Assembly (NCBI GenBank): GCA_027294635.1
Contig: JAPULR010000002.1
Coordinates: 1-24,000 of the forward strand
DNA length: 24,000 nucleotides
Source of the DNA: Chloroflexota bacterium
GTDB lineage: Bacteria; Chloroflexota; Dehalococcoidia; Lucifugimonadales; GCA-2712585
Direction of reading: 5' to 3'
The position numbers were made by a program, and so were the translations under genes. Within the stretch, counting starts at the first letter, position 1, and every line of letters starts with the position of its first letter. The notes under the pieces were generated by a model. It had not been told where the DNA came from. It was given only the letters and a program-made list of their open reading frames with translations, and did no database searches. Positions 1 through 21,163 of the stretch are shown piece after piece.

Positions 1-1
1 C

Positions 2-601
2 ACCATTGCCAAGCGGCTGAAGCAGGGCGAGCAGCCAATTGTCGATAGCTTCAGTGGAGTGAGTGTGCTTTTTGCCGACATAGTTGGCTTTACTAGCTTG
101 TCGACTCGGAAATCTCCCAGAGAACTGATCGAGATACTGAACCAAATATTCTCAGCCTTTGATGAACTATCTGATAGGCATGGATTGGAGAAGATAAAGA
201 CCATCGGCGACGCCTATATGGTCGTTGGGGGGTTGCCTACCCCTATGGCGGACCACGCCGAATCTATCGCCGAAATGGCTCTCGACATGCAGAAGTACAT
301 AATCCGATTCAATGCTGAAACTGAACAAGAGCTTAGCATTCGGATAGGGATCAACAGCGGGCCTGTGGTTGCGGGTGTTGTCGGAACGAAGAAGTTCCTC
401 TACGATATTTGGGGCGACGTAGTCAATACTGCAGCCCGAATGGAATCCCACGGTGTTGGAGGACGAATCCAAGTGACTGAGGAGACCTACCAGCGCTTAC
501 GGCACAACTATTCCTTTGAGGACCGTGGCATTGTCGATGTGAAGGGCAAAGGGAATATGCATGTATACTTCCTCGTGGGGAGGAAAACGACTGGTATGTA
601 G
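2..601 (+). CDS. Class III adenylate cyclase catalytic domain; 5' end lies upstream of the window
   Basis: The frame of ORF 59..601 stays open back to base 2 (TIAKRLKQGEQPIVDSFSGVSVLFADIVGFT...). Metal-binding Asp motifs FADIVGFT and KTIGDAYM and the NTAARMES motif are present. The Lys (KTIGD) plus Asp (YDIWGD) pair is typical of ATP-specific cyclases. Stop TAG at 599-601. Confidence 0.85.
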   Translation, partial: TIAKRLKQGEQPIVDSFSGVSVLFADIVGFTSLSTRKSPRELIEILNQIFSAFDELSDRHGLEKIKTIGDAYMVVGGLPTPMADHAESIAEMALDMQKYIIRFNAETEQELSIRIGINSGPVVAGVVGTKKFLYDIWGDVVNTAARMESHGVGGRIQVTEETYQRLRHNYSFEDRGIVDVKGKGNMHVYFLVGRKTTGM

Positions 602-2895: not shown

Positions 2896-3054
2896 ATGGG
2901 AAAAGGTTTGGTGATTGGAGCAACTGGGACCATCGAAAGATTGTTGGTCCCAAGACTGCTAGCCAGAGGGACCAAGGTTCGAGCATTCGTGTACAGAGAA
3001 TTTGGTCTCCCTGTCACATTCCTAAAGCCTACCTTCTTTAAGCAAGTCAGCTGA
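2896..3054 (+). pseudogene. Mini-ORF (52 aa) that looks like an internally deleted NmrA/atypical-SDR NAD(P)-binding gene
   Basis: MGKGLVIGATGTIERLLVPRLLARGTKVRAFVYRE resembles the Rossmann N-terminus (xLVxGATGxxGxxVVxxLLxRGxxVRAxxR), but the third Gly is Glu. It runs straight into a short tail (GLPVTFLKPTFF) and stops. Its TGA overlaps the next ATG (TGATG at 3052-3056). Confidence 0.4.
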
Positions 3055-4223
3055 TGGGCGCGAACACTGTTCGCGATCAATGGCCTCGCATGTTCCTAGC
3101 ATTGATCTTGTCCATTACCCTTGTGGCAACAGTAATCGCTTGTGGCGGGCAACCGGAGCAGAAGGAATTTCGCATCGGCCTGATAGCCCCGATTACGGGG
3201 GATATACCGACGACAGGACGAGCCGCCGTTGACGGAGCGACGCTTGCGGTAAAGGAGGTAAACGATGGCGGCGGCCTGGTAGTAGCCGGCGAAGCCTACC
3301 AGATCGTGCTCGTCATCGAAGATAACCAGGATAAAGCTGAGGTATCAGCGCAGGCCGTCCTCAAATTGGTTAACCAACAAAATGTCATCGCTATCGTCGG
3401 GCCTATGGCGAGCCGAAATGCTATTCCGGCGTCAACTGTGGCGGAGCGAACCAAGATTCCGATGATCAGTCCCTCGTCCACTAACCCTGCAACTACCTTA
3501 AACAAGACTTGGGTTTTCCGGGCAACCTTCATTGACCCTTTCCAGGGACAGGTCATGGCCCAGTTCGCCTGGGAGGAGTTGGACGCGCAAAAGGTTGCCG
3601 TGCTTTATGATATAGCCAGTGAATACAATCGGGGATTGGCCGAGTTTTTCAGATCCTCCTATGAAGGTTATGGTGGGGAAATGGTGGCATTCGAATCCTA
3701 CACCACCGACGCACCAGACGTGACCCAACAAATGGCACGAATCAAAGAGAGTGGGGCAGACGTGCTATTCCTTCCCAACTATCACAACGAAGTGCTAAAA
3801 CAAGTGGGTCAAGCGCGAGAAATGGGTATCAAAGCACAGATCATCGGCGGCGACACCTGGAGCTCGATACAAGGCGCTGATCGTTCGGCCGTAGAAGGAT
3901 CCTACTTCAGTACCCACTATGCAGTGGACGTTGCTGACGAGAAAGCCCAGGGATTTGTCACCAGGTTTCAGGAAGCCTACGGCCGGGACCCTGAAGATAA
4001 CGCCGCACTGACCTATGATTCTTTTGGCCTACTGTTCAAGGCGGTTAAGGATCAAGGTAAAGTGGACCCGGACGCCATTCGTGACGGTCTAGCGGCCATC
4101 GTCTACAGGGGCGTCACTGGAACAATTGAATATGGCATAGGTAGTGGTGATCCACTAAAGAGCGCCGTGATCATGGAGATTAAGGATGGAAATTTTGTTT
4201 TCCACTCGCGCGCTGAACCGTAG
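3054..4223 (+). CDS. ABC-transporter periplasmic solute-binding lipoprotein, LivK/branched-chain amino-acid type (Peripla_BP_6-like)
   Basis: Signal peptide with lipobox (LVATVIAC-GG), then FRIGLIAPITGDIPTTGRAAVDGATLAVKEVN...VIAIVGPMASRNA...IPMISPSSTNP, typical of the family. No strong SD; an alternative start at Met 3090 is possible. No permease or ATPase genes in the window. Confidence 0.85.
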   Translation: MGANTVRDQWPRMFLALILSITLVATVIACGGQPEQKEFRIGLIAPITGDIPTTGRAAVDGATLAVKEVNDGGGLVVAGEAYQIVLVIEDNQDKAEVSAQAVLKLVNQQNVIAIVGPMASRNAIPASTVAERTKIPMISPSSTNPATTLNKTWVFRATFIDPFQGQVMAQFAWEELDAQKVAVLYDIASEYNRGLAEFFRSSYEGYGGEMVAFESYTTDAPDVTQQMARIKESGADVLFLPNYHNEVLKQVGQAREMGIKAQIIGGDTWSSIQGADRSAVEGSYFSTHYAVDVADEKAQGFVTRFQEAYGRDPEDNAALTYDSFGLLFKAVKDQGKVDPDAIRDGLAAIVYRGVTGTIEYGIGSGDPLKSAVIMEIKDGNFVFHSRAEP

Positions 4224-4304: not shown

Positions 4305-5162
4305 ATGCGATTTGAAGTTACCCATCTCACGAAGTTCATTTACAGTCGTCCCGTTTTCTTAGAACCCCATGAGGTAAGATTGCGGCCACGATGTGATAGT
4401 TGGCAAAATCTTCTTAGCTTCAAAATACATGTCGATCCATCACCAGCTGGCATAACTCATAACATTGATCTCCATAATAACTCTTCCACTCGAATGTGGT
4501 TTAACGGAACCCATAAATCTCTCATCATTACAACCGCCTTTAGTGTGGAGACTCTACGAACAGACCCTTTCGATTTCATTGTTGATTCTCAGGCTCTTGT
4601 ATTACCCGTAAACTATTCTGATGAAGACTCTGACTCCTTGGCCCCTTTCCGAGAAGTTTCAAACTTTTCTGTTGATGTAAAGAATCTAGCTAAGTCCATC
4701 TCCAACGATGCTAAAAATGAAACGCTCGCATTTCTTGTGTCTCTAAACCAGCGAATTCACGAGACAATTGAGCCTATATTTCGCGCTGTAGGTGATCCAT
4801 GGCCTGCATCGACGACACTTGAAAAAAGGAAAGGTTCTTGCCGAGATCAGTCGGTTCTTTTCATTGCTGTCTGCCGAACTGTTGGATTGGCGGCGCGATT
4901 TGTCAGTGGTTATCAGGAAGGCGACTATCAGCGAGCGAAGCGAGAATTACATGCATGGGCAGAAGTATATCTGCCTGGAGCTGGTTGGCGCGGCTATGAT
5001 CCAATGAGCGGACTAGTAATTTCCGACCGTCACGTTGCGGTCGCTTCGGGACACATCCCAAGCGCCGCAGCCCCGACATCCGGTACATTCCGGGGCACAA
5101 ACGTGGAATCTACTATGCGCACACAAATCGACATCGAAGTTCAGCCTGTCCGCCAAGTCTAA
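4305..5162 (+). CDS. Transglutaminase-family protein (Bact_transglu_N plus transglutaminase core)
   Basis: N-terminus MRFEVTHLTKFIYSRPVFLEPHEVRLRPR is typical of the bacterial N-terminal domain. Catalytic triad context GSCRDQSVLFIAVCRTVGLAARFVSGY (Cys), HAWAEVYLPGAGWRGYDP (His, Asp). Confidence 0.85.
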   Translation: MRFEVTHLTKFIYSRPVFLEPHEVRLRPRCDSWQNLLSFKIHVDPSPAGITHNIDLHNNSSTRMWFNGTHKSLIITTAFSVETLRTDPFDFIVDSQALVLPVNYSDEDSDSLAPFREVSNFSVDVKNLAKSISNDAKNETLAFLVSLNQRIHETIEPIFRAVGDPWPASTTLEKRKGSCRDQSVLFIAVCRTVGLAARFVSGYQEGDYQRAKRELHAWAEVYLPGAGWRGYDPMSGLVISDRHVAVASGHIPSAAAPTSGTFRGTNVESTMRTQIDIEVQPVRQV

Positions 5163-5331: not shown

Positions 5332-5946
5332 ATGGACAACGGGGCAATTTGTTTTTCGAGAAGCATGTCATCGGGAGGGGAAGAGATCGCTAGCATCGTT
5401 GCAGAAAAGATGAGCTATCGCTATGTAGACGATAATATTATCACCATAGCGGCAGAAAAAGGGGGAGTCACTCCGGAAACGATTGGGAAAGTTGAACGTT
5501 CTAGCGAGATGATTAACCGCATCCTTGGATATATGTCCCATGATACTGGGAGATCCAACCATTTCACGAGCATCCGGATGGGTCAGTCAGAGGAATACCG
5601 ACAATTGATCCAAGAAGTGGTCGTTGAAACTGCCAAATCAGGGAAGGTCGTAATCGTTGCTCATGGCGCTGCCATCCCGCTAGCAGATATGGCTCGCGTT
5701 TTGCGGGTATTTGTTACTGCCTCTCAATCGAACCGAACCAAACGACACATGAGCACATCGAACGTGGATGAGCAAAAAGCAAGGGAAGATATCGCTGCCT
5801 CTGATCGCCAACGTGCGGAGTACTTTCGAAACTTCTACGATATCAATCTAGAACTACCGACTCATTACGACATAGTACTGAACACTGACCACATTACACC
5901 GTCAGTTGCTGCAGATGTAGTGGTAAGTGCCGCCAGGGGGATGTAG
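5332..5946 (+). CDS. Cytidylate kinase-like family protein, paralog C
   Basis: SD aaaGGAGAg 8 nt upstream of the ATG. ICFSRSMSSGGEEIASIVAEKMSYRYVDDNII...VVIVAHGAAIPLA...ELPTHYDIVLNTDHITPSVAADVV. 111/120 nt identical between 5701-5820 and 12447-12566 (hand alignment). Confidence 0.85.
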   Translation: MDNGAICFSRSMSSGGEEIASIVAEKMSYRYVDDNIITIAAEKGGVTPETIGKVERSSEMINRILGYMSHDTGRSNHFTSIRMGQSEEYRQLIQEVVVETAKSGKVVIVAHGAAIPLADMARVLRVFVTASQSNRTKRHMSTSNVDEQKAREDIAASDRQRAEYFRNFYDINLELPTHYDIVLNTDHITPSVAADVVVSAARGM

Positions 5947-6066: not shown

Positions 6067-6411
6067 CTAAAGTGATTTTGCTCCACGTTCGGCAGTATCG
6101 ATACGAACCGCATCTAATATCCGGCTTACAAAAATTCGGCCGTCACCTGCTTTGCCCGTTGCTGCAGAGTCTATAATGAAACCTATCACCTTATCAGTGT
6201 CCTCGTCCGAGACCACGATTTCCAATTTTATTTTGGAAAGAGTAGGATCTACATAGGTCCCGGTGCCTCGGCTGGACGTCCTACTAGAGCCCGGGTTATC
6301 TCCTTGACCTAAGATACGAGTCACAGTCATCCCTTTAAACCCAGCATCGTTCAGAGCTATTTGAACACTAGTTAATTTCTCCGGTCTAATGATAGCTTCT
6401 ATCTTATTCAC
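6067..6411 (-). CDS. P-II family nitrogen-regulatory protein (GlnB/GlnK-like) with a non-canonical, longer T-loop
   Basis: GTG start with AGGAGG 5 nt upstream. MNKIEAIIRPEKL...GMTVT...KIKLEIVV...TGKAGDGRIFV...RIDT matches the P-II core and B-loop. The T-loop reads GQGDNPGSSRTSSRGTGTYVD in place of the GFGRQKGHTELYRGAEY consensus. Confidence 0.85.
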   Translation of the reverse strand: MNKIEAIIRPEKLTSVQIALNDAGFKGMTVTRILGQGDNPGSSRTSSRGTGTYVDPTLSKIKLEIVVSDEDTDKVIGFIIDSAATGKAGDGRIFVSRILDAVRIDTAERGAKSL

Positions 6412-8012: not shown

Positions 8013-8819
8013 CTATCCCTTGGGCGCATCGTGGGAAAGGGCGGTAGGTTGCTCACGAACAACTTTATACGTTTTACCTGGAATTGCCAATTCACATGCC
8101 CCGGAAAACTCTTTTGCTACTTCCGTTAATATTTGATCAGGGTCATGACTTTCCCAAATGTGAGTGACTAGCAAGTTACCCACATTCGCATTGGCAGCTG
8201 CGGCGCCTGCTTCCCTACCGGTCATGTGTCCCCGTTGGGCTGAGTTCTTTGGGCTGGTTATCCCATCACCTGCTTCACATAGGAAAAGACTGGATTCATT
8301 TGCGATAGAGATTAGAGGTTCGCACAGGCTAGAGTCTGCAGAGTAACACAACGAGCCAGCGTCATTTTCAATGCGCATTGCAAACGTGGGAATGAAGTGT
8401 TGTACCTGTTGAAATTTGATCTGGAGCCCTGGCAGACAAAGAACCGTCCCCGCCGTATATTCCTCCACATCATAAGCGTCTAGGGGATACCCCATGGACA
8501 ATTCGTCTAAAAACTTTAATAGTTGGGTGCGAGTATCGGGAGGAGTCCATACTTTAAATGGGGTGTTTGCATGGGTGACAGGAGATAGCTTTAGAAGATA
8601 GCTTAGTGGGACTAGGCCAAGCCAATGATCTATGTGCAGGTGGGATATCACTATACCAGAGAGTTCTGGCAGTGATTTTCTGAATTCAGGTGTCGCCACT
8701 ACACCAGGACCAATGTCCAGGACTACTGAGGTATCTCCTCCTTTGACTAGATAGCCGGATGACGCCCCTCCAGGGTTGGGGCATACGGGGCCGTTTCCGA
8801 GGATGGTAAGTTCCAACAT
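8013..8819 (-). CDS. MBL-fold metallo-hydrolase (Lactamase_B_2 / RNase Z-PhnP-like)
   Basis: HxHxDH motif in VISHLHIDHWLGLVPL and a C-terminal GHMTGREAG...LLVTHI motif. The start is moved to the second ATG (8819, MLELTILGNG...) because GGAGG sits 5 nt upstream of it. The ORF-track start at 8834 lacks an SD. Confidence 0.8.
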   Translation of the reverse strand: MLELTILGNGPVCPNPGGASSGYLVKGGDTSVVLDIGPGVVATPEFRKSLPELSGIVISHLHIDHWLGLVPLSYLLKLSPVTHANTPFKVWTPPDTRTQLLKFLDELSMGYPLDAYDVEEYTAGTVLCLPGLQIKFQQVQHFIPTFAMRIENDAGSLCYSADSSLCEPLISIANESSLFLCEAGDGITSPKNSAQRGHMTGREAGAAAANANVGNLLVTHIWESHDPDQILTEVAKEFSGACELAIPGKTYKVVREQPTALSHDAPKG

Positions 8820-8968
8820 CAACACCTCCGTCATTGTTTTATTATGTCCCTTTCACGCTGGGCAAGCCCCCCATTTTTAATCGACCGATCCATCTGCGGC
8901 AGTAGGGAACCGCTCGCCTTTGAGAAGCCCCCGCTGTAGAATTATGAATATGATTCAGGAGATGTAAA

Positions 8969-10891
8969 GTGGTTCAAGCCGACGAGCGATCACAACTGCT
9001 ACGAGAAGTTGAACTTTTCCGAGATATCGATGCCTCCGAGTTACAGTTAATCGTCCAACAGATGAAAGAGGAGTCCTATGCGGACCGACAGGTGGTCTTC
9101 CGTGAAGGGGATCCCGGCGACAGGTTGTTCATTCTACTCGAAGGCACTATGCACATATACGTCAATCGGGAAAACCAGGTCATCACCTATAACAGGCTTC
9201 AAGCAGGAGAGTGTTTTGGTGAGATGGCCCTTATCGAGAATACTCCCCGGTCGGCGACTGTCCAGGCAGAGGCACCCTCGAAGTGCCTCACATTATCTCG
9301 CCAGGGTTTTCTGGACCTGCTGAGTAACCACCCTCTCGTTGTCCTTAGACTGATGCGGGTTTTGGTTCCTCGACTTCGAAGTACAAACGTTCAGCTCCAA
9401 AATTATGCCACTCGGCGACGAGCCGGATCAGATAGTGCCCGGGTCGCCATGAACTTTTTGAATTACGAAACAGAGGGGTTCTTTGACGAAATGCTCGACG
9501 AAAGCGGTCGACCTCGCGACGCCGCAGCCCTCCTAATGCAACGCATTACTAACCTGCCAGAAGGCGAATTACAAGATCGGCAACAAGCAGCTGAACAAGC
9601 ACTACTAAACCTGGGTATCACATTTAACGTATACGGCGATGAATCCGGAACGGAGAAGATATTTCCTTTCGACATAATACCAAGGATCGTTGGGGCCAGT
9701 GACTGGAATTACATAGAGAAGGGATTAAAGCAGCGCATTCAAGCCCTAAACCTGTTTATAGATGATCTGTACCACTCTCAGAAGATTGTGAAAGACGGTA
9801 TCGTGCCAGAGCACCTGATTCAATCCGCTCAAAACTTGTTGCTACCTTGTGAGGGACTCAATCCACCAAAAGGCATCTGGTGTCATATCACTGGTACCGA
9901 CATAGTACGAGACGGGGATGGTCAATTATATGTTCTGGAAGACAACCTACGCTGCCCCTCAGGGGTCTCTTATGTCCTGGAAAACCGCCAGGTCCTAAAG
10001 GCTACATTCCCGCAAGTATTTGAGGCGTCTAAAGTTAGACCAGTTGACGATTATCCAAGCCGTCTGCTGGAAACCTTACAAAGTATTGCTCCAGAGGGTT
10101 CTGAATCACCTACGATCGTCTTGTTAACGCCAGGCACCTATAACTCTGCCTATTTCGAGCACGCATTTTTAGCTCAGCAAATGGGCATTGAACTGGTGCA
10201 AGGAAGCGATCTAATGGTAGTCGACGGTTATGTCAACATGCGCACCACTCATGGTCTTGAACAGGTGGACGTCATATATAGACGGATTGATGATGATTTT
10301 CTTGACCCTCAAATATTCAACCCAGAGTCTCAACTTGGTGTCCCAGGGTTGATAGATGTATATAGGGCTGGTCGGGTAGCGCTCGCAAATGCACCGGGAA
10401 CGGGAGTAGCTGATGACAAGGCCGTATACACCTACGTTCCGCAAATGATCAAATATTACCTGGACCAGGATATGATTTTGCCTAACGTTCCTACATACAT
10501 CTGTTGGGACGACAAACAGCGAGAACATGTCCTGGCCAATCTGGACAAGCTAGTGGTGAAGGTAACCAATGAATCAGGTGGCTACGGGATGCTTATTGGT
10601 CCACACTCCACCACTAAGGAGCAGGAACTATTCGCCGAACGTATAAAGGCTAATCCACGGAACTACATCGCGCAGCCGACCCTAGCCCTTTCCAGAGCCC
10701 CAGTAATCGTCGACGGCAAATTCGAAGGCCGTCACGTCGATTTACGTCCTTACATTCTATATGGATCGGACATCTATGTTCTCCCTGGCGGTCTAACGCG
10801 GGTTGCACTAAAGAAGGGCTCGCTGGTAGTTAATTCTTCACAGGGTGGCGGCAGCAAGGATACGTGGGTAATCGCGGAGGAACCACAATAA
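8969..10891 (+). CDS. Fusion protein: N-terminal cyclic-nucleotide-binding domain plus circularly permuted type-2 ATP-grasp (amidoligase-like) protein
   Basis: GTG start with AGGAGA 6 nt upstream. Residues 1 to about 140 form a CNB fold with the phosphate-binding cassette [18 protein letters not shown] (nt 9215-9268). From Met161 (ATG 9449) [15 protein letters not shown]...[26 protein letters not shown]...[21 protein letters not shown] matches the usual N-terminus and body of stand-alone CP ATP-grasp type-2 proteins (about 480 aa). Confidence 0.85.
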
Positions 10892-11871
10892 TGTTAAGCA
10901 GAGTTGCTGATTCAATATACTGGATGAATCGATACCTAGAACGGGCCGAGAACGTCGCCCGATTTGTTGACGTGAATCTAAACCTGCTGCTCGACCTGCC
11001 TGGATCTGCGGATGAACAGTGGGAGCCGTTAGTTCAGACTACAGGCGATGAATTGCTATTTCGGGAGAGGTTTGGTCAGGCTACCCAAGAGAATGTACTA
11101 GCTTTTTTAACATTTGATGCCGGTAATCCCAACTCTGTCTTTTCGTGTCTGGGTGCTGCGCGCGAAAATGCTCGATCAGTCCGCGAAACTATTTCTTCAG
11201 AAATGTGGGAACAGATAAACAAATTCTACCTTATGGTTAGGTCTGCCGCCGCCGCAGGAGGTGTTTTAGAAAATCCTCACAACTTTTATACTGATGTCAA
11301 AATGGCATCCCACTTATTCATGGGGATAACAGATGCCACCATGTCACATGGCGAAGCCTGGCACTTCGGACGTCTTGGAACTCTCCTTGAGCGGGCCGAC
11401 AAAACATCGCGAATGCTAGACGTCAAGTACTTCGTCCTTCTTCCCAGTGTGACGGATGTAGGTACCTCAATCGACGATATCCAGTGGTCTGCAGTGCTAA
11501 AATCAACTAGCGCATTTGAAATGTATCGGAAGCGTCATGGGCGCCTAGCGCCAGATCTTGTAGCCGATTTTTTGATCCTTGATAAAGAATTCCCACGATC
11601 CATCCGTTCCTGTGTGGTCAACGCTGAGGAATCTTTACACACCATCGGAGGCTCACCAATGAGCGCTTTCAATAACGTTGCCGAGCGGAGCCTCGGACGA
11701 ATTCGGTCAGAATTAGATTATGCCCAGATACAGGAAATTATTACAGGCGGTCTGCACGAATTTCACGTAGAGTTACGAAGCAAGCTATTTTCGGTCGGCA
11801 ATGACGTTTTTGACACCTTTTTCGCGACACGGTCTTCCCTGAATTCTTTGACTCCTATCACAGAATGTTGA
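10891..11871 (+). CDS. Alpha-E domain protein (usual partner of CP ATP-grasp type-2)
   Basis: [25 protein letters not shown] is the family's characteristic N-terminus. ATG 10891 overlaps the upstream TAA (TAATG), implying translational coupling. The ORF-track GTG at 10864 would overlap the ATP-grasp gene by 28 nt and is not favoured. Confidence 0.85.
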   Translation: MLSRVADSIYWMNRYLERAENVARFVDVNLNLLLDLPGSADEQWEPLVQTTGDELLFRERFGQATQENVLAFLTFDAGNPNSVFSCLGAARENARSVRETISSEMWEQINKFYLMVRSAAAAGGVLENPHNFYTDVKMASHLFMGITDATMSHGEAWHFGRLGTLLERADKTSRMLDVKYFVLLPSVTDVGTSIDDIQWSAVLKSTSAFEMYRKRHGRLAPDLVADFLILDKEFPRSIRSCVVNAEESLHTIGGSPMSAFNNVAERSLGRIRSELDYAQIQEIITGGLHEFHVELRSKLFSVGNDVFDTFFATRSSLNSLTPITEC

Positions 11872-12056: not shown

Positions 12057-12731
12057 ATGGATACCAGGGTAATTTGCTTTTCAAGAAGCATGTCCGGTGG
12101 GGGAGATGAAATCGCTCGCAAGGTTGCAGATAAGATCCGTTTTCGCTATGTGGACGATGAGATCATCATCACGGCGGCAGAAAAAGAGGGAGTCTCTCCG
12201 ATAATGATTGGGAAGGTTGAACGTTCTAGCCCGATCATAGACCGTATCCTTGGATCCATGTCTTATAACAATCCCAAACAAGAGGAGAAAGGTGGGGGAT
12301 CCTATCAAATTACGAGTTCCAAACTGAGTCAGTCAGAGGGATACCGACAAATAATCCAAGATGTGATCGTTGAAACTGCCAAAATGGGTAAGGTCGTAAT
12401 CGTTGCGCATGGTGCAGCGATCCCCTTATCAGAGATGAGCGGGGTTTTGCGGGTATTTGTTACCGCCTCTCAATCGAACCGGACCAAACGACACATGAGC
12501 ACATCGAACTTGGATGAGCAAAAAGCGAGGGAAGATATCGTTGCCTCCGATCGTCAACGTACGGACTACTTTCGAAAATTTTACCATATCGATCAGGAAC
12601 TACCGACTCATTACGACATAGTATTGAACACTGACCACCTCACTCCTTCAATTGCTGTAGATGTGATAGTTAGAATCGCGAAGAAACTGAAGACAGACAT
12701 GTATGAACCCGCCCAAGACGAAAGAGGGTAG
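12057..12731 (+). CDS. Cytidylate kinase-like family protein, paralog D (longer central loop and C-terminal tail)
   Basis: ICFSRSMSGGGDEIARKVADKIRFRYVDDEII...VVIVAHGAAIPLS...ELPTHYDIVLNTDHLTPSIAVDVI. It shares about 30 nt of the upstream RBS region (ccgaacaaGGAGa) with paralog C. Confidence 0.85.
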   Translation: MDTRVICFSRSMSGGGDEIARKVADKIRFRYVDDEIIITAAEKEGVSPIMIGKVERSSPIIDRILGSMSYNNPKQEEKGGGSYQITSSKLSQSEGYRQIIQDVIVETAKMGKVVIVAHGAAIPLSEMSGVLRVFVTASQSNRTKRHMSTSNLDEQKAREDIVASDRQRTDYFRKFYHIDQELPTHYDIVLNTDHLTPSIAVDVIVRIAKKLKTDMYEPAQDERG

Positions 12732-14427: not shown

Positions 14428-14676
14428 ATGGCTCAAACTCAATGGGTTTCATTCCAAGAGCTGAAAGAAAAGATCTCGATGTCGGATCTGCTGGCGTACT
14501 ATGGTCTCCTTGCCTCTCTCCAACCCCGGCGCGACGGGGAGGAGCTGGTGGGGTTGTGTCCCTTCCACCAGGAGACCCGGGGATCCTTCCACGTGTCAAC
14601 GGTCAAGAATGCCTGGAACTGCTTTGGTTGCCAAATGAAAGGCAACATCCATGATCCCCGAAACGTAGATTGTTGA
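14428..14676 (+). pseudogene. Truncated DNA primase: CHC2 zinc-finger domain only (phage/plasmid-type)
   Basis: GLCPFHQETRGSFHVSTVKNAWNCFGCQMKGNI matches the zf-CHC2 pattern CPFHxExxPSFxV...CFGCxxxG. The ORF stops 9 codons after the motif, with no TOPRIM or helicase-binding part downstream. Confidence 0.55.
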
Positions 14677-15709: not shown

Positions 15710-15810
15710 CTATTCTTGTATCCGATGCCGTCATGTGTCAACCGAGCGTGTTGCATATTTCCTAGGGGGGCTGCGGTAAAATGGCCGTATCACCTTTAGG
15801 AGGAGAGCCC

Positions 15811-16515
15811 GTGACGATAGTTGCCTTGCTTAAGGAATCTGATGATATTTTCTATCTTGGTGCCGATTCCCAATGGACAGACTCGGTGGGCACGAAGACC
15901 TTTAAGACTAAAATTACAGTCCTAAACGGCAAGGGGAATATTGTTGCTTGGGCAACGGCGGGGAACCCCCAAATAGGCGTAGCGGAGTTTGGTAATTGGG
16001 CCAAGAATTATCAGCGCACAGAAACGACGACATGGGAATCGTTTATTACGGATGCAGCAGGAGAGTTTGCACGGCTGAATCGTATTAAGAAAGAGATAGG
16101 AGAGAAAGCTGGGCAGGATATCAACGCCTCCGCTTTTAAACGGGAGCACCTTTGTGAAATGTTAATTTGTGGTTGGCTAAACCATAGAAGTGCTGGTTAT
16201 TTCGTTGGGGACGATGGGAATTATCAGAGCTTGGACCTTCTCGGCATGATGACGATTGGCACAGGTGGCCCATTCGCAGATGCAGTCTATAAGACTAGTC
16301 TCTACTTTCAAAAGAAGTTGGACTTAACTATTCATCAGGCTTTCCAGCACTTGATGGAGATTACATCACGCTATGCTGACCGATGTAGTCTCCCGTATGA
16401 ATTTGTCAAAATCTCTGAAGGGAAACGGGAACTGTTTCGGTCGAAGGAACCTGAGCCTGGTGTAGAGGAAATAAAGCCTGCAAAGCCAGAAGGGAAAGGT
16501 AGCAGTGAGTCGTAA
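15811..16515 (+). CDS. Stand-alone proteasome beta-subunit-like Ntn hydrolase (Anbu/BPH-like candidate)
   Basis: GTG 15811 has AGGAGG (15798-15803) 7 nt upstream and yields Met-Thr-Ile-Val-Ala-Leu-Leu. After Met removal: Thr1, GADS (Asp18), FKTKITVL (Lys31/33), ATAGNPQIG, IGTGGPFA (Ser129 position is Thr) and YADRCS (Asp-x-x-Ser). This spacing parallels 20S beta catalytic residues T1/D17/K33/S129/D166/S169. The C-terminal tail is low-complexity (KEPEPGVEEIKPAKPEGKGSSES). Confidence 0.7.
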   Translation: MTIVALLKESDDIFYLGADSQWTDSVGTKTFKTKITVLNGKGNIVAWATAGNPQIGVAEFGNWAKNYQRTETTTWESFITDAAGEFARLNRIKKEIGEKAGQDINASAFKREHLCEMLICGWLNHRSAGYFVGDDGNYQSLDLLGMMTIGTGGPFADAVYKTSLYFQKKLDLTIHQAFQHLMEITSRYADRCSLPYEFVKISEGKRELFRSKEPEPGVEEIKPAKPEGKGSSES

Positions 16516-16610: not shown

Positions 16611-18776
16611 TCACCATCCGGGAATCACACGCTTCAGGAACTGAGGCGACCACCAGTTCCAGCGGTCCATAATCCGCATCAGCGCCGGGACCAGGAAGGC
16701 CCGAACCACCGTAGCATCCAATAGTATCGCAATGGCGGTCCCCACACCCAGAGCCTTGACTATGACTATGTCGGCGGTGGCGAAGGCGGCGGCCACCAGC
16801 ACCAGGATCAGAGCGCCGCTGGTTATGATGGGGCCGGTAATCTCCATCCCCTGGGCCACGCTCTGTTCGTTATCCCCGGTGGAATCGTAGACCTCCTTGA
16901 TTCGGCTGAGGAGGAATATCTCGTAGTCCATGCTGAGGCCAAAAATGATGGCGAACAGCAGTATGGGAATGGTGGCCTCGGTGACCCCCTCGGTGGTGAA
17001 GCCCAACAAGCCCTGGAAATGCCCCTGCTGGAAGATGAAGACAAGGGCGCCGTAGCTGGCGAAGATGCTCATCAGGTTCATTATTGTGGCCTTCAGGGGT
17101 AGCAGTACCGATCGGAACAGGACGAAGAGGGCAATGTAAACGGTGACCACCACAAAGATGATGGCGATTGGGAAGGCGCTGTACATTACGTCGATGGAGT
17201 CCATCAGATCGGCGGTGGCGCCCGTTACCATCAGGGAGAAGTCCTGCCCCGGGTCGAAGGAGCGAATTTGGCGGACCAGGTCCCGCGACTCATCCGCCAC
17301 CGGAGTAAACCGGCTGAAGACTCGAATCACCGTTGTGTCTCCGCTGAGGTACTTCTCGACGGCTTCATCGGATGGGAACCCGCTGGGCCGGGTGCCGCCG
17401 TCGGAGAGGTTGGGGGAGATCAGGCTTTCTACCCTGTCCACACTTGGGTCGTTTTGGAGTGTATCGACAAGACTGCGGAGCCGTGTCGTGTTTTCCTCGG
17501 TTAAAGTGTCTCCTGAAAACTGGGCCGCTATGACTATGGGGGCGATAGCTCCCGGCCCCATCCGCTCCGATACTACGTCCCATCCTCGTCTGGAAGGTAC
17601 GTCCTCAGGCAGAACCGTAGCCCAGACTGAGCCCAGGTTCACACCCAGAAAAGGTATACCCAGAGCTACGAGGAAAACCAGCAAGGGTATGGCCACAACC
17701 AAAGGACGCCGCATCACCCCGAGGGCGAGGCGGCGCCATAATCCCCTACCAACGCCGCGGTTGGGGAGGACTGGTTGTGCGTTCACCCTATCGCCTACCA
17801 CCGCCAGAATGGCGGGCAGCAGCGTAAGGGCCACCAGGAGGGAGATCATGATGACCATCACCCCACCCAGGCCCAGGGAGCGGAGCATCATGAAATCGAA
17901 CAAAAGCAGGGAAGACAGTCCCAGCATGGAGGTAAGTCCGGAAAAGAGGATGGTCTTTCCTGAGGTGGCCAGGGTGTGGGCCACGGCTTCCTTCTTTGGG
18001 TGCCGGTTTATCTCTTCCCTGAACCGGCTTACCACCAGCAGGGAATAGTCCACCGCTACCCCCAAGCCCAGGAAGGAGACTATGTTTAGCGCGAATATGG
18101 ACACGTCTGTTACCTGGGCCACGAAAAAGAGGAGAGCCAAAGCCGCCGATACACTTATGGCCCCAACGGCGACGGGGATGCTGGCGGCCACCAGCCCGCG
18201 GAAGACGAAGACGAGGGCAACCAGGACCAGGGGGATGGCTATGATTTCGCCCCGCCGCAGGTCCCGCTCCGAGGCTTTATTTATGTCGGAAAAGATGGCG
18301 ACACCCCCCGTGGTCCACACCTCCAGGTCACCTTCCCCCAGGGAATCTTCCAACTGTGGAAAGGACTCAATAGCCTCATCAATAGATAATCGCAGGGGCA
18401 CCAGAGCGAAGGTAGTTTTCCCGTCGGGGGACACCTGGGAAGGCGTCCCACCGTCGTAGAAGGTCGTGATTTCGCCCACGTCTGGTCGCCCTCTAAGAGG
18501 GGTGAGGACCTTCTCCATCTCGGCTCTATAAGCAGGGTCCTCCGTGGTTATTAACGGGCTCGAGAAGACGACGATTAGGGTTGATTCGGAGGTCCCAAAC
18601 CGGTCTTCCAGAAGGTCAAGAGCACGGCGGGACTCGGTGTCTATATCGCCAAAGCCGCCCTTGAGCTGGGAGGCGACACGGGGTAGGACGGACAGCGAGA
18701 GGAGAAAGACGAGGGCCCAGGCGATGATAATGGGCCAGCGGTACTTGGCCGAGAAAATACCCAGGCGGTAAAACAC
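16611..18776 (-). CDS. MMPL-family (RND superfamily) membrane transporter
   Basis: 721 aa. N-terminus MFYRLGIFSAKYRWPIIIAWALVFLL, two blocks of TM helices each followed by an extracytoplasmic domain, and DYSLLVVSRFREE / MDYEIFLLSRIKE motifs typical of MMPL proteins. Confidence 0.9.
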   Translation of the reverse strand: MFYRLGIFSAKYRWPIIIAWALVFLLSLSVLPRVASQLKGGFGDIDTESRRALDLLEDRFGTSESTLIVVFSSPLITTEDPAYRAEMEKVLTPLRGRPDVGEITTFYDGGTPSQVSPDGKTTFALVPLRLSIDEAIESFPQLEDSLGEGDLEVWTTGGVAIFSDINKASERDLRRGEIIAIPLVLVALVFVFRGLVAASIPVAVGAISVSAALALLFFVAQVTDVSIFALNIVSFLGLGVAVDYSLLVVSRFREEINRHPKKEAVAHTLATSGKTILFSGLTSMLGLSSLLLFDFMMLRSLGLGGVMVIMISLLVALTLLPAILAVVGDRVNAQPVLPNRGVGRGLWRRLALGVMRRPLVVAIPLLVFLVALGIPFLGVNLGSVWATVLPEDVPSRRGWDVVSERMGPGAIAPIVIAAQFSGDTLTEENTTRLRSLVDTLQNDPSVDRVESLISPNLSDGGTRPSGFPSDEAVEKYLSGDTTVIRVFSRFTPVADESRDLVRQIRSFDPGQDFSLMVTGATADLMDSIDVMYSAFPIAIIFVVVTVYIALFVLFRSVLLPLKATIMNLMSIFASYGALVFIFQQGHFQGLLGFTTEGVTEATIPILLFAIIFGLSMDYEIFLLSRIKEVYDSTGDNEQSVAQGMEITGPIITSGALILVLVAAAFATADIVIVKALGVGTAIAILLDATVVRAFLVPALMRIMDRWNWWSPQFLKRVIPGW

Positions 18777-18892
18777 CGAGTTAGAGAGGGTCCGTGGATA
18801 GGATATAGATTTCGCTCATCCCGCTGTAATTGTCTGCTAAGTCAAGAGGGTAAGTAAATCCCAGAGCTATACCATACCAGCCACTAGCATCC

Positions 18893-18921
18893 TTGGTGCC
18901 TCTCAAGAGTGATGCTATACT
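18893..18921 (+). promoter_or_regulatory. Candidate sigma70-type promoter for the citE-like/folB/tauE gene string
   Basis: TTGGTG (18893-18898), 17-nt spacer, TGc-TATACT extended -10 (18913-18921). SD AGGAGA 6 nt upstream of GTG 18964. Confidence 0.5.
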
Positions 18922-18963
18922 GGGCCTCAATCCAAGGCAGGGAAGAATATCAGGAGAGCCACG

Positions 18964-19848
18964 GTGGAGCTGCTAAGAAGCCTACAGTTTGTGCCCGGCA
19001 ATCGCCGCGATATGCTGGAGAAGTCCCGCACCTTTGATGCGGATGTCCTGGTGGCGGACTTAGAGGACTCGGTGCCGCCGGCGGAGAAGGCAGCCGCCCG
19101 TGAGCTGGTGCGAGAGCTGGCGCCATCCCTATCTGGCCGAGACCAGAAGGTTGTGGTGCGGGTAAACTCCCTCGACACGGGCCTGACCGCCGATGAGCTG
19201 GAAGCCATAGCTGGCCCTCACTTGTATGGAGTCAGCCTGGGTAAGGTAGACTCCCCCTGGCATATTCAGGAGTGTCACCGACTGCTGGCGACCCAGGAGT
19301 CTCGCCTGGGGATGGAATCAGGCGTCATCAAAATCATACCGTGGATCGAAAGCGCGGCGGGGATTTTGAGAGCTGCGGATATTGCCAGGGCCTCTCCTCG
19401 GGTGGTGGCCCTGGCCTTCGGCGCCGAAGACTACACCAACGATATGGGGATACAGCGCACCGATGAGGGCGAAGAGGTAAGGCTTCCCAGGTCAATGGTG
19501 CCCATAGTTGCTCAGGCGGCGGGCATAGTGGCCCTGGACACCCCATACGTCAAATTCCGTGACCCTGAGGGACTCCAGCGGGAGGCCGAGGCCGCGCGAA
19601 GGCTGGGGTACAAAGGCAAGTTCGCCATTCACCCGGTCCAGCTAGAGATCATAAACACTGTGTTTAGCCCCAGGGAAGAGGACCTGGAGTACGCCCGTCG
19701 GGTTGTGGAGGCGTGGGAGCAGGCTGAAGCCCAGGGCCGAGGCGCTCTGGCCCTGGATGGCAACATGGTGGACGTTCCCGTGGTGAAGAGGGCCTACAAT
19801 ATTCTTAAGCTGGCAAAGCAGATGGCAAAGAGGGGCCGAAGCGAATGA
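18964..19848 (+). CDS. HpcH/HpaI aldolase / citrate-lyase beta-subunit-like CoA-ester lyase (CitE family)
   Basis: LRSLQFVPGNRRDMLEKSRTFDADVLVADLEDSVPPAEK and AFGAEDYTNDMG match the CitE/malyl-CoA-lyase-like signature regions. Confidence 0.85.
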   Translation: MELLRSLQFVPGNRRDMLEKSRTFDADVLVADLEDSVPPAEKAAARELVRELAPSLSGRDQKVVVRVNSLDTGLTADELEAIAGPHLYGVSLGKVDSPWHIQECHRLLATQESRLGMESGVIKIIPWIESAAGILRAADIARASPRVVALAFGAEDYTNDMGIQRTDEGEEVRLPRSMVPIVAQAAGIVALDTPYVKFRDPEGLQREAEAARRLGYKGKFAIHPVQLEIINTVFSPREEDLEYARRVVEAWEQAEAQGRGALALDGNMVDVPVVKRAYNILKLAKQMAKRGRSE

Positions 19849-19918
19849 TAGATGAGGCTGAGGAGCGAGGAGTCGCCGCCGAGATTCTGGCCTACGGCAC
19901 AGCGGTGGTCGTAGACTG

Positions 19919-20296
19919 ATGGGTAAATCCCCATCCGACAAGATTATCCTGGAGGGGATGCAGTTTTACGCCTATCACGGTCGTAACCCCGAGGAGCGGA
20001 CCCTGGGCCAGCCCTTCGTTGTAGATCTGGAAGCGGAGGTCGACTTAAGGGCCGCCGGAGAATCGGACCACATCGGCGATACGGTGAGCTATACCGACCT
20101 TTATCGGGCCGTCAAAGCGGAGATGGAGGGGCCTGCCAAGAACCTCCTCGAAGGGGTGGCCCATGCCATTGCCCAGCGAATCCTAGACTCCTATTCCGTT
20201 CGAAGCGTCAGGGTAAGGGTAAAGAAGACTAGCCCTCCCATCAAGGACGCCTTTCTCTCCGGTGCTGCTGTAGAGGTGTACCGCTCCAGGGAATGA
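19919..20296 (+). CDS. folB: Dihydroneopterin aldolase
   Basis: DKIILEGMQFYAYHGRNPEERTLGQPFVVDLEAEVDL...DTVSYTDLYRAVK...LLEGVAHAIAQRIL; the 125-aa length fits FolB. Confidence 0.85.
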   Translation: MGKSPSDKIILEGMQFYAYHGRNPEERTLGQPFVVDLEAEVDLRAAGESDHIGDTVSYTDLYRAVKAEMEGPAKNLLEGVAHAIAQRILDSYSVRSVRVRVKKTSPPIKDAFLSGAAVEVYRSRE

Positions 20297-20314
20297 CTCT
20301 CTTCCTCCAAACCT

Positions 20315-21142
20315 ATGCTTGAGTTCTCCAGCGATCTTGCTCTCTGGCAGATCACTATCTTGTCCCTCGTTTCCCTCGTCGTGGGCCTCCTCGGTGGTTT
20401 TGTGGGTCTGGCCCTGGGTACCATGAGGCTTCCCGGCATACTGCTTACCGGACTGAACCCTCAGGTTGCGGCGGGCACCAACATACTGGTCAGTGCTTTG
20501 GCTGCGCTGTCCGGGGGGTACCGGCACTTACGGGAGCGCCGAGTGGACTGGAGTGTTGTCCTCTGGTTAGGGGTACCTTCGGTGGTTGGAGCTTTCGTTG
20601 GAGGTTTGTTCAGCGGTGAGGTGCCCGCGAGCTTGCTAATCTCCCTGGTCGGGCTTCTGGTGCTGTGGCAGGGGATTGAATTTTTGGGTTTACGCCGGCG
20701 CCTACTAGGTCAATCTCAGACTAAGGGGGCCGTATCAGCTACGGTGGATAACCCCCGTTCTCACAGGGCAGAGAAGACCACCGCAGGCACTTTTGGCCTG
20801 AGCATCGGGTTGCTGGGCGGCGCCGTGGGGCTGATCCTTGGCAGCTTGCGCCTTCCCCTGATGATCAGAATCATGCGTATGGACCCTCGCAAGGCCGCGG
20901 GCTCCAATCTAATCATAGGGGCTTCCCTGGGCCTTTTCGGGTTCGCAGGCCACGGCATTCGAGGGGAGGTAGACCTGCCCCTGCTGCTGTCCATGGGGCT
21001 AGCGGGCATGGTGGGTTCCTACGTAGGGGCCAGATATACGGGCCGGGTCAGCATCGACTCCCTGATGCTGGTGCTGGCTTGGGTTCTTGCCATCGTCGGG
21101 ATAATCCTGGTAGGCCAGGGAATCCTGGAGGCCCTAGACTAG
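20315..21142 (+). CDS. TauE/SafE-family sulfite/organosulfonate exporter-like membrane protein
   Basis: Two-fold repeated polytopic membrane protein with GGFVGLALGTMRLPGILL and GGAVGLILGSLRLPLMI repeats and AAGTN / AAGSN motifs typical of TauE/SafE. Confidence 0.85.
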   Translation: MLEFSSDLALWQITILSLVSLVVGLLGGFVGLALGTMRLPGILLTGLNPQVAAGTNILVSALAALSGGYRHLRERRVDWSVVLWLGVPSVVGAFVGGLFSGEVPASLLISLVGLLVLWQGIEFLGLRRRLLGQSQTKGAVSATVDNPRSHRAEKTTAGTFGLSIGLLGGAVGLILGSLRLPLMIRIMRMDPRKAAGSNLIIGASLGLFGFAGHGIRGEVDLPLLLSMGLAGMVGSYVGARYTGRVSIDSLMLVLAWVLAIVGIILVGQGILEALD

Positions 21143-21163
21143 GTTACGAACCGTTTGGCCCGT

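Follow-up and report, generated by a model that had tools for sequence, protein, structure and literature searches.

A cyclic-nucleotide-binding domain fused in frame to a circularly permuted ATP-grasp ligase in Chloroflexota, and its candidate role as a cAMP gate of an orphan enzyme module

We analyzed a 24,000-nucleotide stretch of a Chloroflexota genome (contig JAPULR010000002.1, positions 1 to 24,000; hereafter the window), in which one gene joins an N-terminal cyclic-nucleotide-binding (CNB) domain to a circularly permuted (CP) ATP-grasp ligase. The fusion is genuine, in frame and conserved. Its ligase half belongs to the CP ATP-grasp/Alpha-E/transglutaminase module, which is widespread, is accompanied by Anbu in some species, and has lacked an assigned substrate and role for more than 15 years (PMC6376114, PMC5666114). 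The sole activity reported is the release of phosphate from ATP by a Yersinia ATP-grasp homologue (PMC6376114, PMC5666114). We propose, with fair confidence, that the fused protein is a cyclic AMP (cAMP)-gated amide ligase of this orphan module, in which the CNB domain serves as an allosteric switch.

Architecture and spread of the fused gene

The fused gene is a GTG-initiated open reading frame (ORF) of 640 codons on the forward strand (Table 1). The initial annotation, made from the sequence alone, had described an uninterrupted ORF of this length with a CNB region at its N-terminus and had placed Met161 (ATG 9449) where stand-alone ligases usually begin. The first of these claims was borne out by a stop scan, in which positions 8969-9448 contained zero stops in frame 0 and 4 and 7 stops in the remaining frames. 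Profile searches matched residues 35-121 to cNMP_binding (E 4e-24) and residues 238-613 to CP_ATPgrasp_2 (E 4e-168), and, together with the Alpha-E match of the partner protein, all three families suggested for checking were recovered. The PF00027 match scored 84.8 bits against a gathering cut-off of 27.5 and covered profile positions 2-89 of 89, which settled the identity of the N-terminal region; the PF14403 match scored 559.5 bits and covered positions 1-374 of 374. In the alignment, the column of Met161 is the exact start of the stand-alone homologues of ~482 aa, in agreement with the third claim, and the motif LRxTNVQLQxYA, which lies between sensor and ligase, is kept among the CNB fusions. 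Residues 172-636 match PDB 3n6x (E 9e-166), which indicates the same ligase fold.

The fusion was recovered repeatedly from a protein database of 5.8 billion clusters, built at 90% identity. PF00027 and PF14403 occurred together in 58 of the 120 best clusters, with sources in ENA, JGI, NCBI and Logan, and these 58 fused clusters were mostly 630-660 aa long and 66-100% identical. As to novelty, on which the initial annotation had reserved judgment, the architecture is not unique, being present in at least 58 clusters at 90% identity; in the searchable literature, whose coverage leaves Iyer et al. 2009 outside, we found no paper that describes or characterizes the fusion. Automatic labels at JGI already name both of its halves.

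Deposited gene calls handle the fusion unevenly. NCBI records MCZ6865741.1 and MEE8158609.1 (P0018; Chloroflexota metagenome-assembled genomes) start the same gene at Met161 as a 480-aa protein, and this call leaves 480 nt of CNB coding sequence unannotated. Entries P0058, P0061, P0075 and P0128 are "482-aa"-type NCBI or JGI proteins that resemble the Met161 truncation. Since such NCBI calls omit the sensor domain, architecture tables built from them under-count the fusion, and the homology-guided choice of start in these records is an annotation problem that removes the sensor. In a neighbor-joining tree of the ligase part (midpoint-rooted, with a narrow sample), several "482-aa" NCBI or JGI entries nested among the fused proteins, and true stand-alone proteins also nested within the fused diversity.

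Some copies are split. The fused gene of locus L089, a long-read assembly, was called as two proteins of 247 aa and 382 aa, and P0132 and P0133 are fragments within the P0069 cluster. We also observed two adjacent calls in place of one for the cyclase, the transglutaminase and the fused ligase in L084 (8022-9742, 12730-13571) and L089 (8001-9905). Because the same assemblies split neighboring genes as well, we read the split copies in long-read metagenome assemblies as indel errors or pseudogenes, probably the former.

Other searches yielded no further fusions among the matches listed. A scan of a genome collection with residues 1-240 listed matches that were stand-alone ligases at residues 160-240, none of them fused, and a metagenome scan with a CNB-only alignment gave, among the matches listed, distant CNB domains (28-44% identity) with a CP ATP-grasp ligase in 0 of 80 loci. 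The 35 matches obtained with residues 1-200 comprised stand-alone CNB relatives and split copies, with no full-length fusion among them, and in a search of a representative library with residues 1-240, the best 150 matches were dominated by multi-CNB proteins and short fragments. P0251, P0252 and P0263 were rejected as further fusions, as they are CNB-patatin or CNB-LysM proteins. A separate ligase relative, P0052 (651 aa, NCBI), lacks a CNB domain and matches CP_ATPgrasp in two partial segments; its gene model may be chimeric or duplicated.

The sensor domain and its gene context

The sensor domain looks competent for binding a cyclic nucleotide. In CNB domains, the Gly-Glu pair of the phosphate-binding cassette contacts the ribose 2'-OH, and Arg-[Ser/Thr]-Ala contacts the phosphate. 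The cassette occupies residues 83-100, exactly where it had first been annotated. In the fused clade, G84, E85, R94 and A96 do not vary, and both S95 and the cassette as a whole reach at least 90% conservation. The best PDB relatives were the cyclic nucleoside monophosphate (cNMP)-binding domains of PKG and PKA (E 1e-34 to 1e-29). An AlphaFold2 (AF2) model showed strands over residues 32-110, forming a beta-roll with a predicted local distance difference test score (pLDDT) of ~80-91, followed by helices at residues 111-120 and 122-153, the latter 32 residues long. The closest sequence relatives of the domain are stand-alone CNB proteins of ~148 aa (P0295-P0301), which are 58-61% identical to residues 1-148 and represent a plausible donor lineage of the sensor; they differ from the fusion in being separate genes in unrelated contexts. 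The nearest of them, P0301, with 148 aa and 58% identity over residues 1-148, is encoded immediately 5' of a Metallophos-family gene, and the two may form a cNMP sensor/phosphodiesterase pair.

Other sensors occupy the same place in ligases closely related to this one. At the CNB position, P0068 and P0089 have a Response_reg domain, P0089 together with HisKA, and P0113 has an extracellular dCache_1 domain. At the locus level, a receiver or dCache_1 domain replaces the CNB domain in L090 (8001-10103) and L091 (8001-10196), within the same GlnII/Alpha-E/transglutaminase module, and histidine-kinase genes lie upstream at the receiver-domain locus. The linker QLQ(D/E)YA, just 5' of the ligase, is common to CNB and receiver fusions (QLQDYA in P0068 and P0089), which fits a common signal-transmitting helix. 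The occupation of one position by different sensor domains argues that the ligase N-terminus is a regulatory input port with interchangeable sensors.

The gene context supports cAMP gating. The window begins with the catalytic domain of a class III nucleotide cyclase, in which we read the motifs FADIVGFT and EKIKTIGDAYM (KTIGDAY) and in which the metal-binding Asp residues are present. The segment YDIWGDVVNTAARME, with EKIKTIGDAYM, gives a Lys/Asp pair together with Asn/Arg residues, and the segment YDIWGDVVNTAAR, read with FADIVGFT and KTIGDAY, has the residues of a class III adenylate cyclase. In class III cyclases, the Lys/Asp pair specifies ATP, so the product of the window cyclase would be cAMP. 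This cyclase is 67% identical to a dCache-HAMP-cyclase that adjoins the fused gene in L084, the locus of the most divergent fused protein found (CNB domain 30-35% identical). Downstream of the cyclase in the window, a solute-binding lipoprotein of the Peripla_BP_6 family has a visible signal peptide with the lipobox ...VIAC|GG and shares 66% identity with the binding protein encoded next to the L084 cyclase. In L084, the cyclase and binding-protein orthologues stand directly beside the fused gene and divergent from it. A large kinase-cyclase gene also lies near the fused gene of a third locus, L086.

The remaining members of the module are also present. The ligase and Alpha-E genes overlap in a TAATG at 10889-10893 (ligase TAA 10889-10891, Alpha-E ATG 10891-10893), so that the coupling reported in the initial annotation is confirmed both by the sequence and by the Alpha-E profile. 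A GGAGG lies 10 nt 5' of the Alpha-E ATG, a database protein of 326 aa that is 100% identical agrees with a start at ATG 10891, and Alpha-E stands directly 3' of the ligase in every homologous locus examined. The CP ATP-grasp/Alpha-E/transglutaminase trio named in the initial annotation is complete in the window, with the correction that the transglutaminase gene lies upstream and not downstream, ~3.8 kb from the fused gene on the same strand. The protein shares 46-57% identity with the transglutaminases encoded 3' of Alpha-E in L002 and L084-L091, and the transglutaminase gene is the third gene, right after Alpha-E, in L002, L084-L087 and L089-L091. No ORF of the window matched the Anbu/proteasome family. 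The ORF at 15781-16515 (+), encoding 244 aa, was considered as an Anbu-like gene and rejected, because it gave no significant Pfam, NCBIfam, PADLOC or PDB match.

The module of the sensor-fused loci is tied to nitrogen metabolism. The window encodes a type II glutamine synthetase (GlnII) that scored 579 bits against the NF041605 cut-off of 500, adjoined by a P-II gene. With the cyclase, the solute-binding protein and the displaced transglutaminase, these two genes form the strongest part of the context and go beyond the initial annotation. We defined the set of sensor-fused loci as the window, L001, L002, L084-L087 and L089-L091, and a GlnII gene lies within ~4 kb of the ligase in all ten. A called P-II gene also adjoins the module in L085 and L086, and L090 has a partial, uncalled tblastn match only. 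As controls, we took the 52 stand-alone loci listed as matches in the genome-collection scan with residues 1-240; GlnII was near the ligase in none of these 52 loci of other phyla, 44 of which have a transglutaminase gene. It was also absent near the two closest stand-alone relatives (0/2), which are 76-77% identical. The placement of GlnII in the fused loci varies, being upstream of the ligase on either strand or 3' of the transglutaminase gene, and these rearrangements of order and strand argue for selection on the linkage. The linkage agrees with the published induction of the module by nitrogen limitation: the module ranks with the genes of B. cenocepacia that depend most strongly on NtrC (PMC5491218), poor nitrogen sources induce it in P. 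putida (PMC8050072), and its induction by nitrogen limitation in the same species is attributed to Hervas 2008 in the account given by PMC6376114.

Table 1. Coordinates of the fused gene, its parts and the other features of the window
Feature	Position (nt)	Strand	Basis or remark
Shine-Dalgarno AGGAG	8957..8961	+	Read from sequence, 7 nt 5' of fused-gene GTG
Fused gene, 640 aa (CNB domain, linker helix, circularly permuted ATP-grasp ligase)	8969..10891	+	ORF and Pfam
cNMP_binding core, residues 35-121	9071..9331	+	Pfam PF00027
Phosphate-binding cassette, residues 83-100	9215..9268	+	Gly-Glu and Arg-Ser-Ala intact, read from sequence
Linker and long C-terminal helix, residues 122-160	9332..9448	+	Conserved LRxTNVQLQxYA joins sensor to ligase
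Ligase body, residues 161-640	9449..10891	+	Equals whole stand-alone CP ATP-grasp type 2 protein
Alpha-E gene, translationally coupled	10891..11871	+	Alpha-E profile, E 1e-103
Class III nucleotide cyclase, C-terminal catalytic domain, cut by window edge	1..601	+	Guanylate_cyc PF00211, E 5e-67
Peripla_BP_6 solute-binding lipoprotein (branched-chain amino acid/urea binding family)	3054..4223	+	Pfam, NCBIfam
Transglutaminase-like protein (Bact_transglu_N and Transglut_core), displaced third module member	4305..5162	+	Pfam
P-II nitrogen regulatory protein	6067..6411	-	Pfam P-II, E 2e-24
Glutamine synthetase GlnII (type II), 337 aa	6770..7783	+	NCBIfam equivalog NF041605
Metallo-beta-lactamase-fold hydrolase, candidate cNMP phosphodiesterase, divergent from fused gene	8013..8834	-	NCBIfam NF041851
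Four Cytidylate_kin2 (PF13189) P-loop kinase-like paralogues	1234-1800, 2224-2850, 5332-5946, 12057-12731	+	Interspersed through module

Proposed mechanism and alternative explanations

Overall, we provide a putative mechanism in which the fused gene would encode an amide-bond-forming ATP-grasp ligase with an acquired N-terminal CNB switch. The sequences establish the fused architecture, its conservation, the intact motifs and the linkage of the genes; we infer that a ligand is bound, in which way it regulates, what the substrate is and how the signals are chained. The binding lipoprotein and the membrane adenylate cyclase would turn an external nutrient signal, probably related to nitrogen, into cAMP, which the intact phosphate-binding cassette of the sensor would bind. 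The C-helix and the LRxTNVQLQxYA linker would then relay the change to ligase residues 161-237 and the active site, and inhibition of ATP-dependent ligation would be either relieved or imposed. The neighboring metallo-beta-lactamase (MBL)-fold hydrolase may terminate the signal. Finally, the ligase, Alpha-E and the transglutaminase-like protein would act together on a nitrogen-linked substrate, for which the fixed GlnII/P-II neighborhood, along with membership in the Ntr regulon elsewhere, points to a glutamine- or glutamate-derived peptide or conjugate.

A wider interpretation, which we advance only tentatively, is that in one lineage (Chloroflexota, possibly Binatia) the module has turned into a branch of nitrogen metabolism that is gated by signals and tied to GlnII, with the ligase as its control point and with interchangeable inputs in the form of cAMP, two-component phosphorylation or dCache sensing. 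One truncated relative is labeled Candidatus Binatia, and the Alpha-E search gave two 'Candidatus Binatia' labels among the matches listed. If this interpretation is true, the substrate would be a glutamine- or glutamate-derived compound or tag that is made or recycled on demand, and the fusion would offer the first experimentally tractable on-switch for a system that has been unresolved since 2008-2009.

Several points weigh against cAMP gating and its proposed context. The AF2 model is moderate overall (mean pLDDT 66.5, predicted template-modeling score 0.56) and contains no reliable inter-domain interface, and owing to this uncertainty, the sensor-ligase interface is not interpretable. The window cyclase lies ~8 kb from the fused gene, and a cyclase occurs within 10 kb in only three of nine CNB-fused loci. 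The best family of the MBL-fold protein is NF041851, 'cyclic nucleotide-degrading phosphodiesterase' (E 7e-44, positions 2-252 of 253), for which it scored 150 bits, far below the curated cut-off of 400. The gene was absent from the other fused loci examined. For these two reasons, the assignment of this protein as a cNMP phosphodiesterase is treated as a weak lead only; a characterized cAMP phosphodiesterase of the MBL fold is Rv1339 (PMC9293780). Because the fused loci share ancestry, phylogeny confounds the GlnII contrast with the stand-alone loci, and phylogenetic inertia might account for it.

Moreover, cyclic nucleotides are not the only ligands of the CNB fold: among CRP/FNR-type proteins it has been adapted to 2-oxoglutarate, haem and others, and NtcA is a CRP-family regulator that senses 2-oxoglutarate. 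The domain described here might therefore sense a ligand such as 2-oxoglutarate instead of a cyclic nucleotide, or it might act as a constitutive dimerization or autoinhibitory module. We consider this unlikely, although it deserves serious attention: the locus is tied to the nitrogen genes for GlnII and P-II, most fused loci are without a cyclase inside 10 kb, and the low identity of the L084 CNB domain shows fast divergence. Against it stands the cassette, which is a near-perfect match to the PKA/PKG type in its conserved Gly-Glu and Arg-Ser-Ala residues. In addition, the best PDB matches are true cNMP binders, with CRP-family regulators scoring much lower, and the two most divergent loci both have a linked cyclase of the adenylate type. 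We therefore retain a cyclic nucleotide, and cAMP in particular, as the proposed ligand.

We next weighed whether translation from Met161 yields the main functional product, a 480-aa ligase, with the upstream 160 codons decaying or optional, or with two isoforms made from one gene. The two NCBI records called from Met161 favor this explanation, as do the start of the stand-alone proteins at the same column and the presence of Met at residue 161 in 38 of 50 fused proteins. However, the other 12 have Ile (8), Leu (3) or Val (1), so that Met161 is not conserved as an internal start. The frame runs through both halves without a stop, ATG 9449 lacks a Shine-Dalgarno site, and a GGAG-type site lies 6-9 nt 5' of the sensor-domain start codon in seven of seven loci examined. 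The codons of the CNB region are also rich in synonymous differences (42 synonymous versus 33 non-synonymous against L001, and 45 versus 41 against L002); the synonymous share is about half in these closer homologues and drops with divergence. Together with the strong conservation of the binding residues, these observations make a Met161 product improbable, and we regard the full 640-aa protein as the probable product of the gene.

A cyclase near a CNB-containing effector also recalls anti-phage systems of the Pycsar/CBASS type, in which the ligase would be the effector. The CNB domain matched PADLOC models of CNB-containing Pycsar effectors (PycTIR, E 1e-15), and both the cyclase and the four cytidylate-kinase-like paralogues are found in the window. 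The PADLOC match, however, covers a generic CNB domain only, and Alpha-E, the transglutaminase and the MBL-fold protein had no PADLOC match. The cyclase is of the adenine type, its orthologue carries dCache/HAMP sensor domains, and 8 kb separate it from the supposed effector; furthermore, the conserved partners are housekeeping nitrogen genes, and no other fused locus has the kinase-like paralogues. An anti-phage role is thus very improbable. Least credible of all is an assembly or sequencing artefact, in which a missed stop or frameshift joined adjacent genes: the split gene of L089 and the fragments P0132 and P0133 might suggest it, but the same open frame recurs in 58 clusters from independent samples and four sources at 66-100% identity, and the split copies are a minority in long-read contigs that also split other genes (the transglutaminase and cyclase in L084).

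Related systems and other features of the window

The closest known system is the CP ATP-grasp/Alpha-E/transglutaminase module itself, which is attributed to Iyer et al. 2009 and includes the Anbu operon of Pseudomonas and Yersinia. The ligase described here is ~76-78% identical to stand-alone members over 480 aa, and the coupled Alpha-E gene, the transglutaminase-like gene and the link to nitrogen status are shared. In contrast to that module, a sensor is fused to the ligase, GlnII is a fixed neighbor, the Anbu gene of the four-gene operon form is not detectable by sequence, and the transglutaminase gene of the window is displaced upstream. PDB 3n6x, a structural-genomics entry of 474 aa deposited as a 'putative glutathionylspermidine synthase', is homologous over most of the ligase, but it is without a sensor domain.

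On the sensor side, the mycobacterial cAMP-regulated acetyltransferase Pat (Rv0998/MSMEG_5458) has the same order of N-terminal CNB domain, helix and catalytic domain, and our CNB domain matched the NCBIfam family 'acetyltransferase Pat' (E 3e-12). Bdellovibrio Bd1971, a cNMP-regulated EAL enzyme, likewise joins a CNB domain to a catalytic domain (CNB match E 2e-17). Unlike in Pat and Bd1971, the output here is an ATP-grasp ligase, and we found no report of an ATP-grasp enzyme as a cNMP-controlled output. Control by a CNB domain is already known for several bacterial enzymes, so the principle has precedents. What is new is the ATP-grasp ligase as the output, the swapping of inputs and the GlnII linkage, which are variations on a known theme. 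Nevertheless, a ligand-gated switch on the ligase would give a defined in vitro on-switch for an orphan enzyme, and the natural switch variants and the fixed partner GlnII narrow the search for its substrate. The fusion, in its nitrogen and cAMP context, further suggests when the orphan ligase module is switched on.

Scans for other elements of the window gave little. Promoter-like sites were equal in number to the shuffled expectation, the 7 terminator-like sites were not clearly more than the 4.2 ± 2.4 found in shuffles, and tRNA and Rfam scans returned no matches. The four Cytidylate_kin2 paralogues are 45-78% identical to each other, with none found in the other fused loci, and one of them weakly matches the PADLOC model 'viperin-kinase' (E 9e-6). 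The region 16611-23980 encodes an MMPL transporter, an HpcH/HpaI aldolase, FolB, TauE and a large FAD-oxidase/CCG/Fe-S protein with no evident link to the module. Between 12750 and 15100 (~2.3 kb), short overlapping ORFs have no family matches, except for one 82-aa fragment at 14428-14676 with a DnaG-type CHC2 zinc finger; this region may be a decayed mobile element or a primase remnant.

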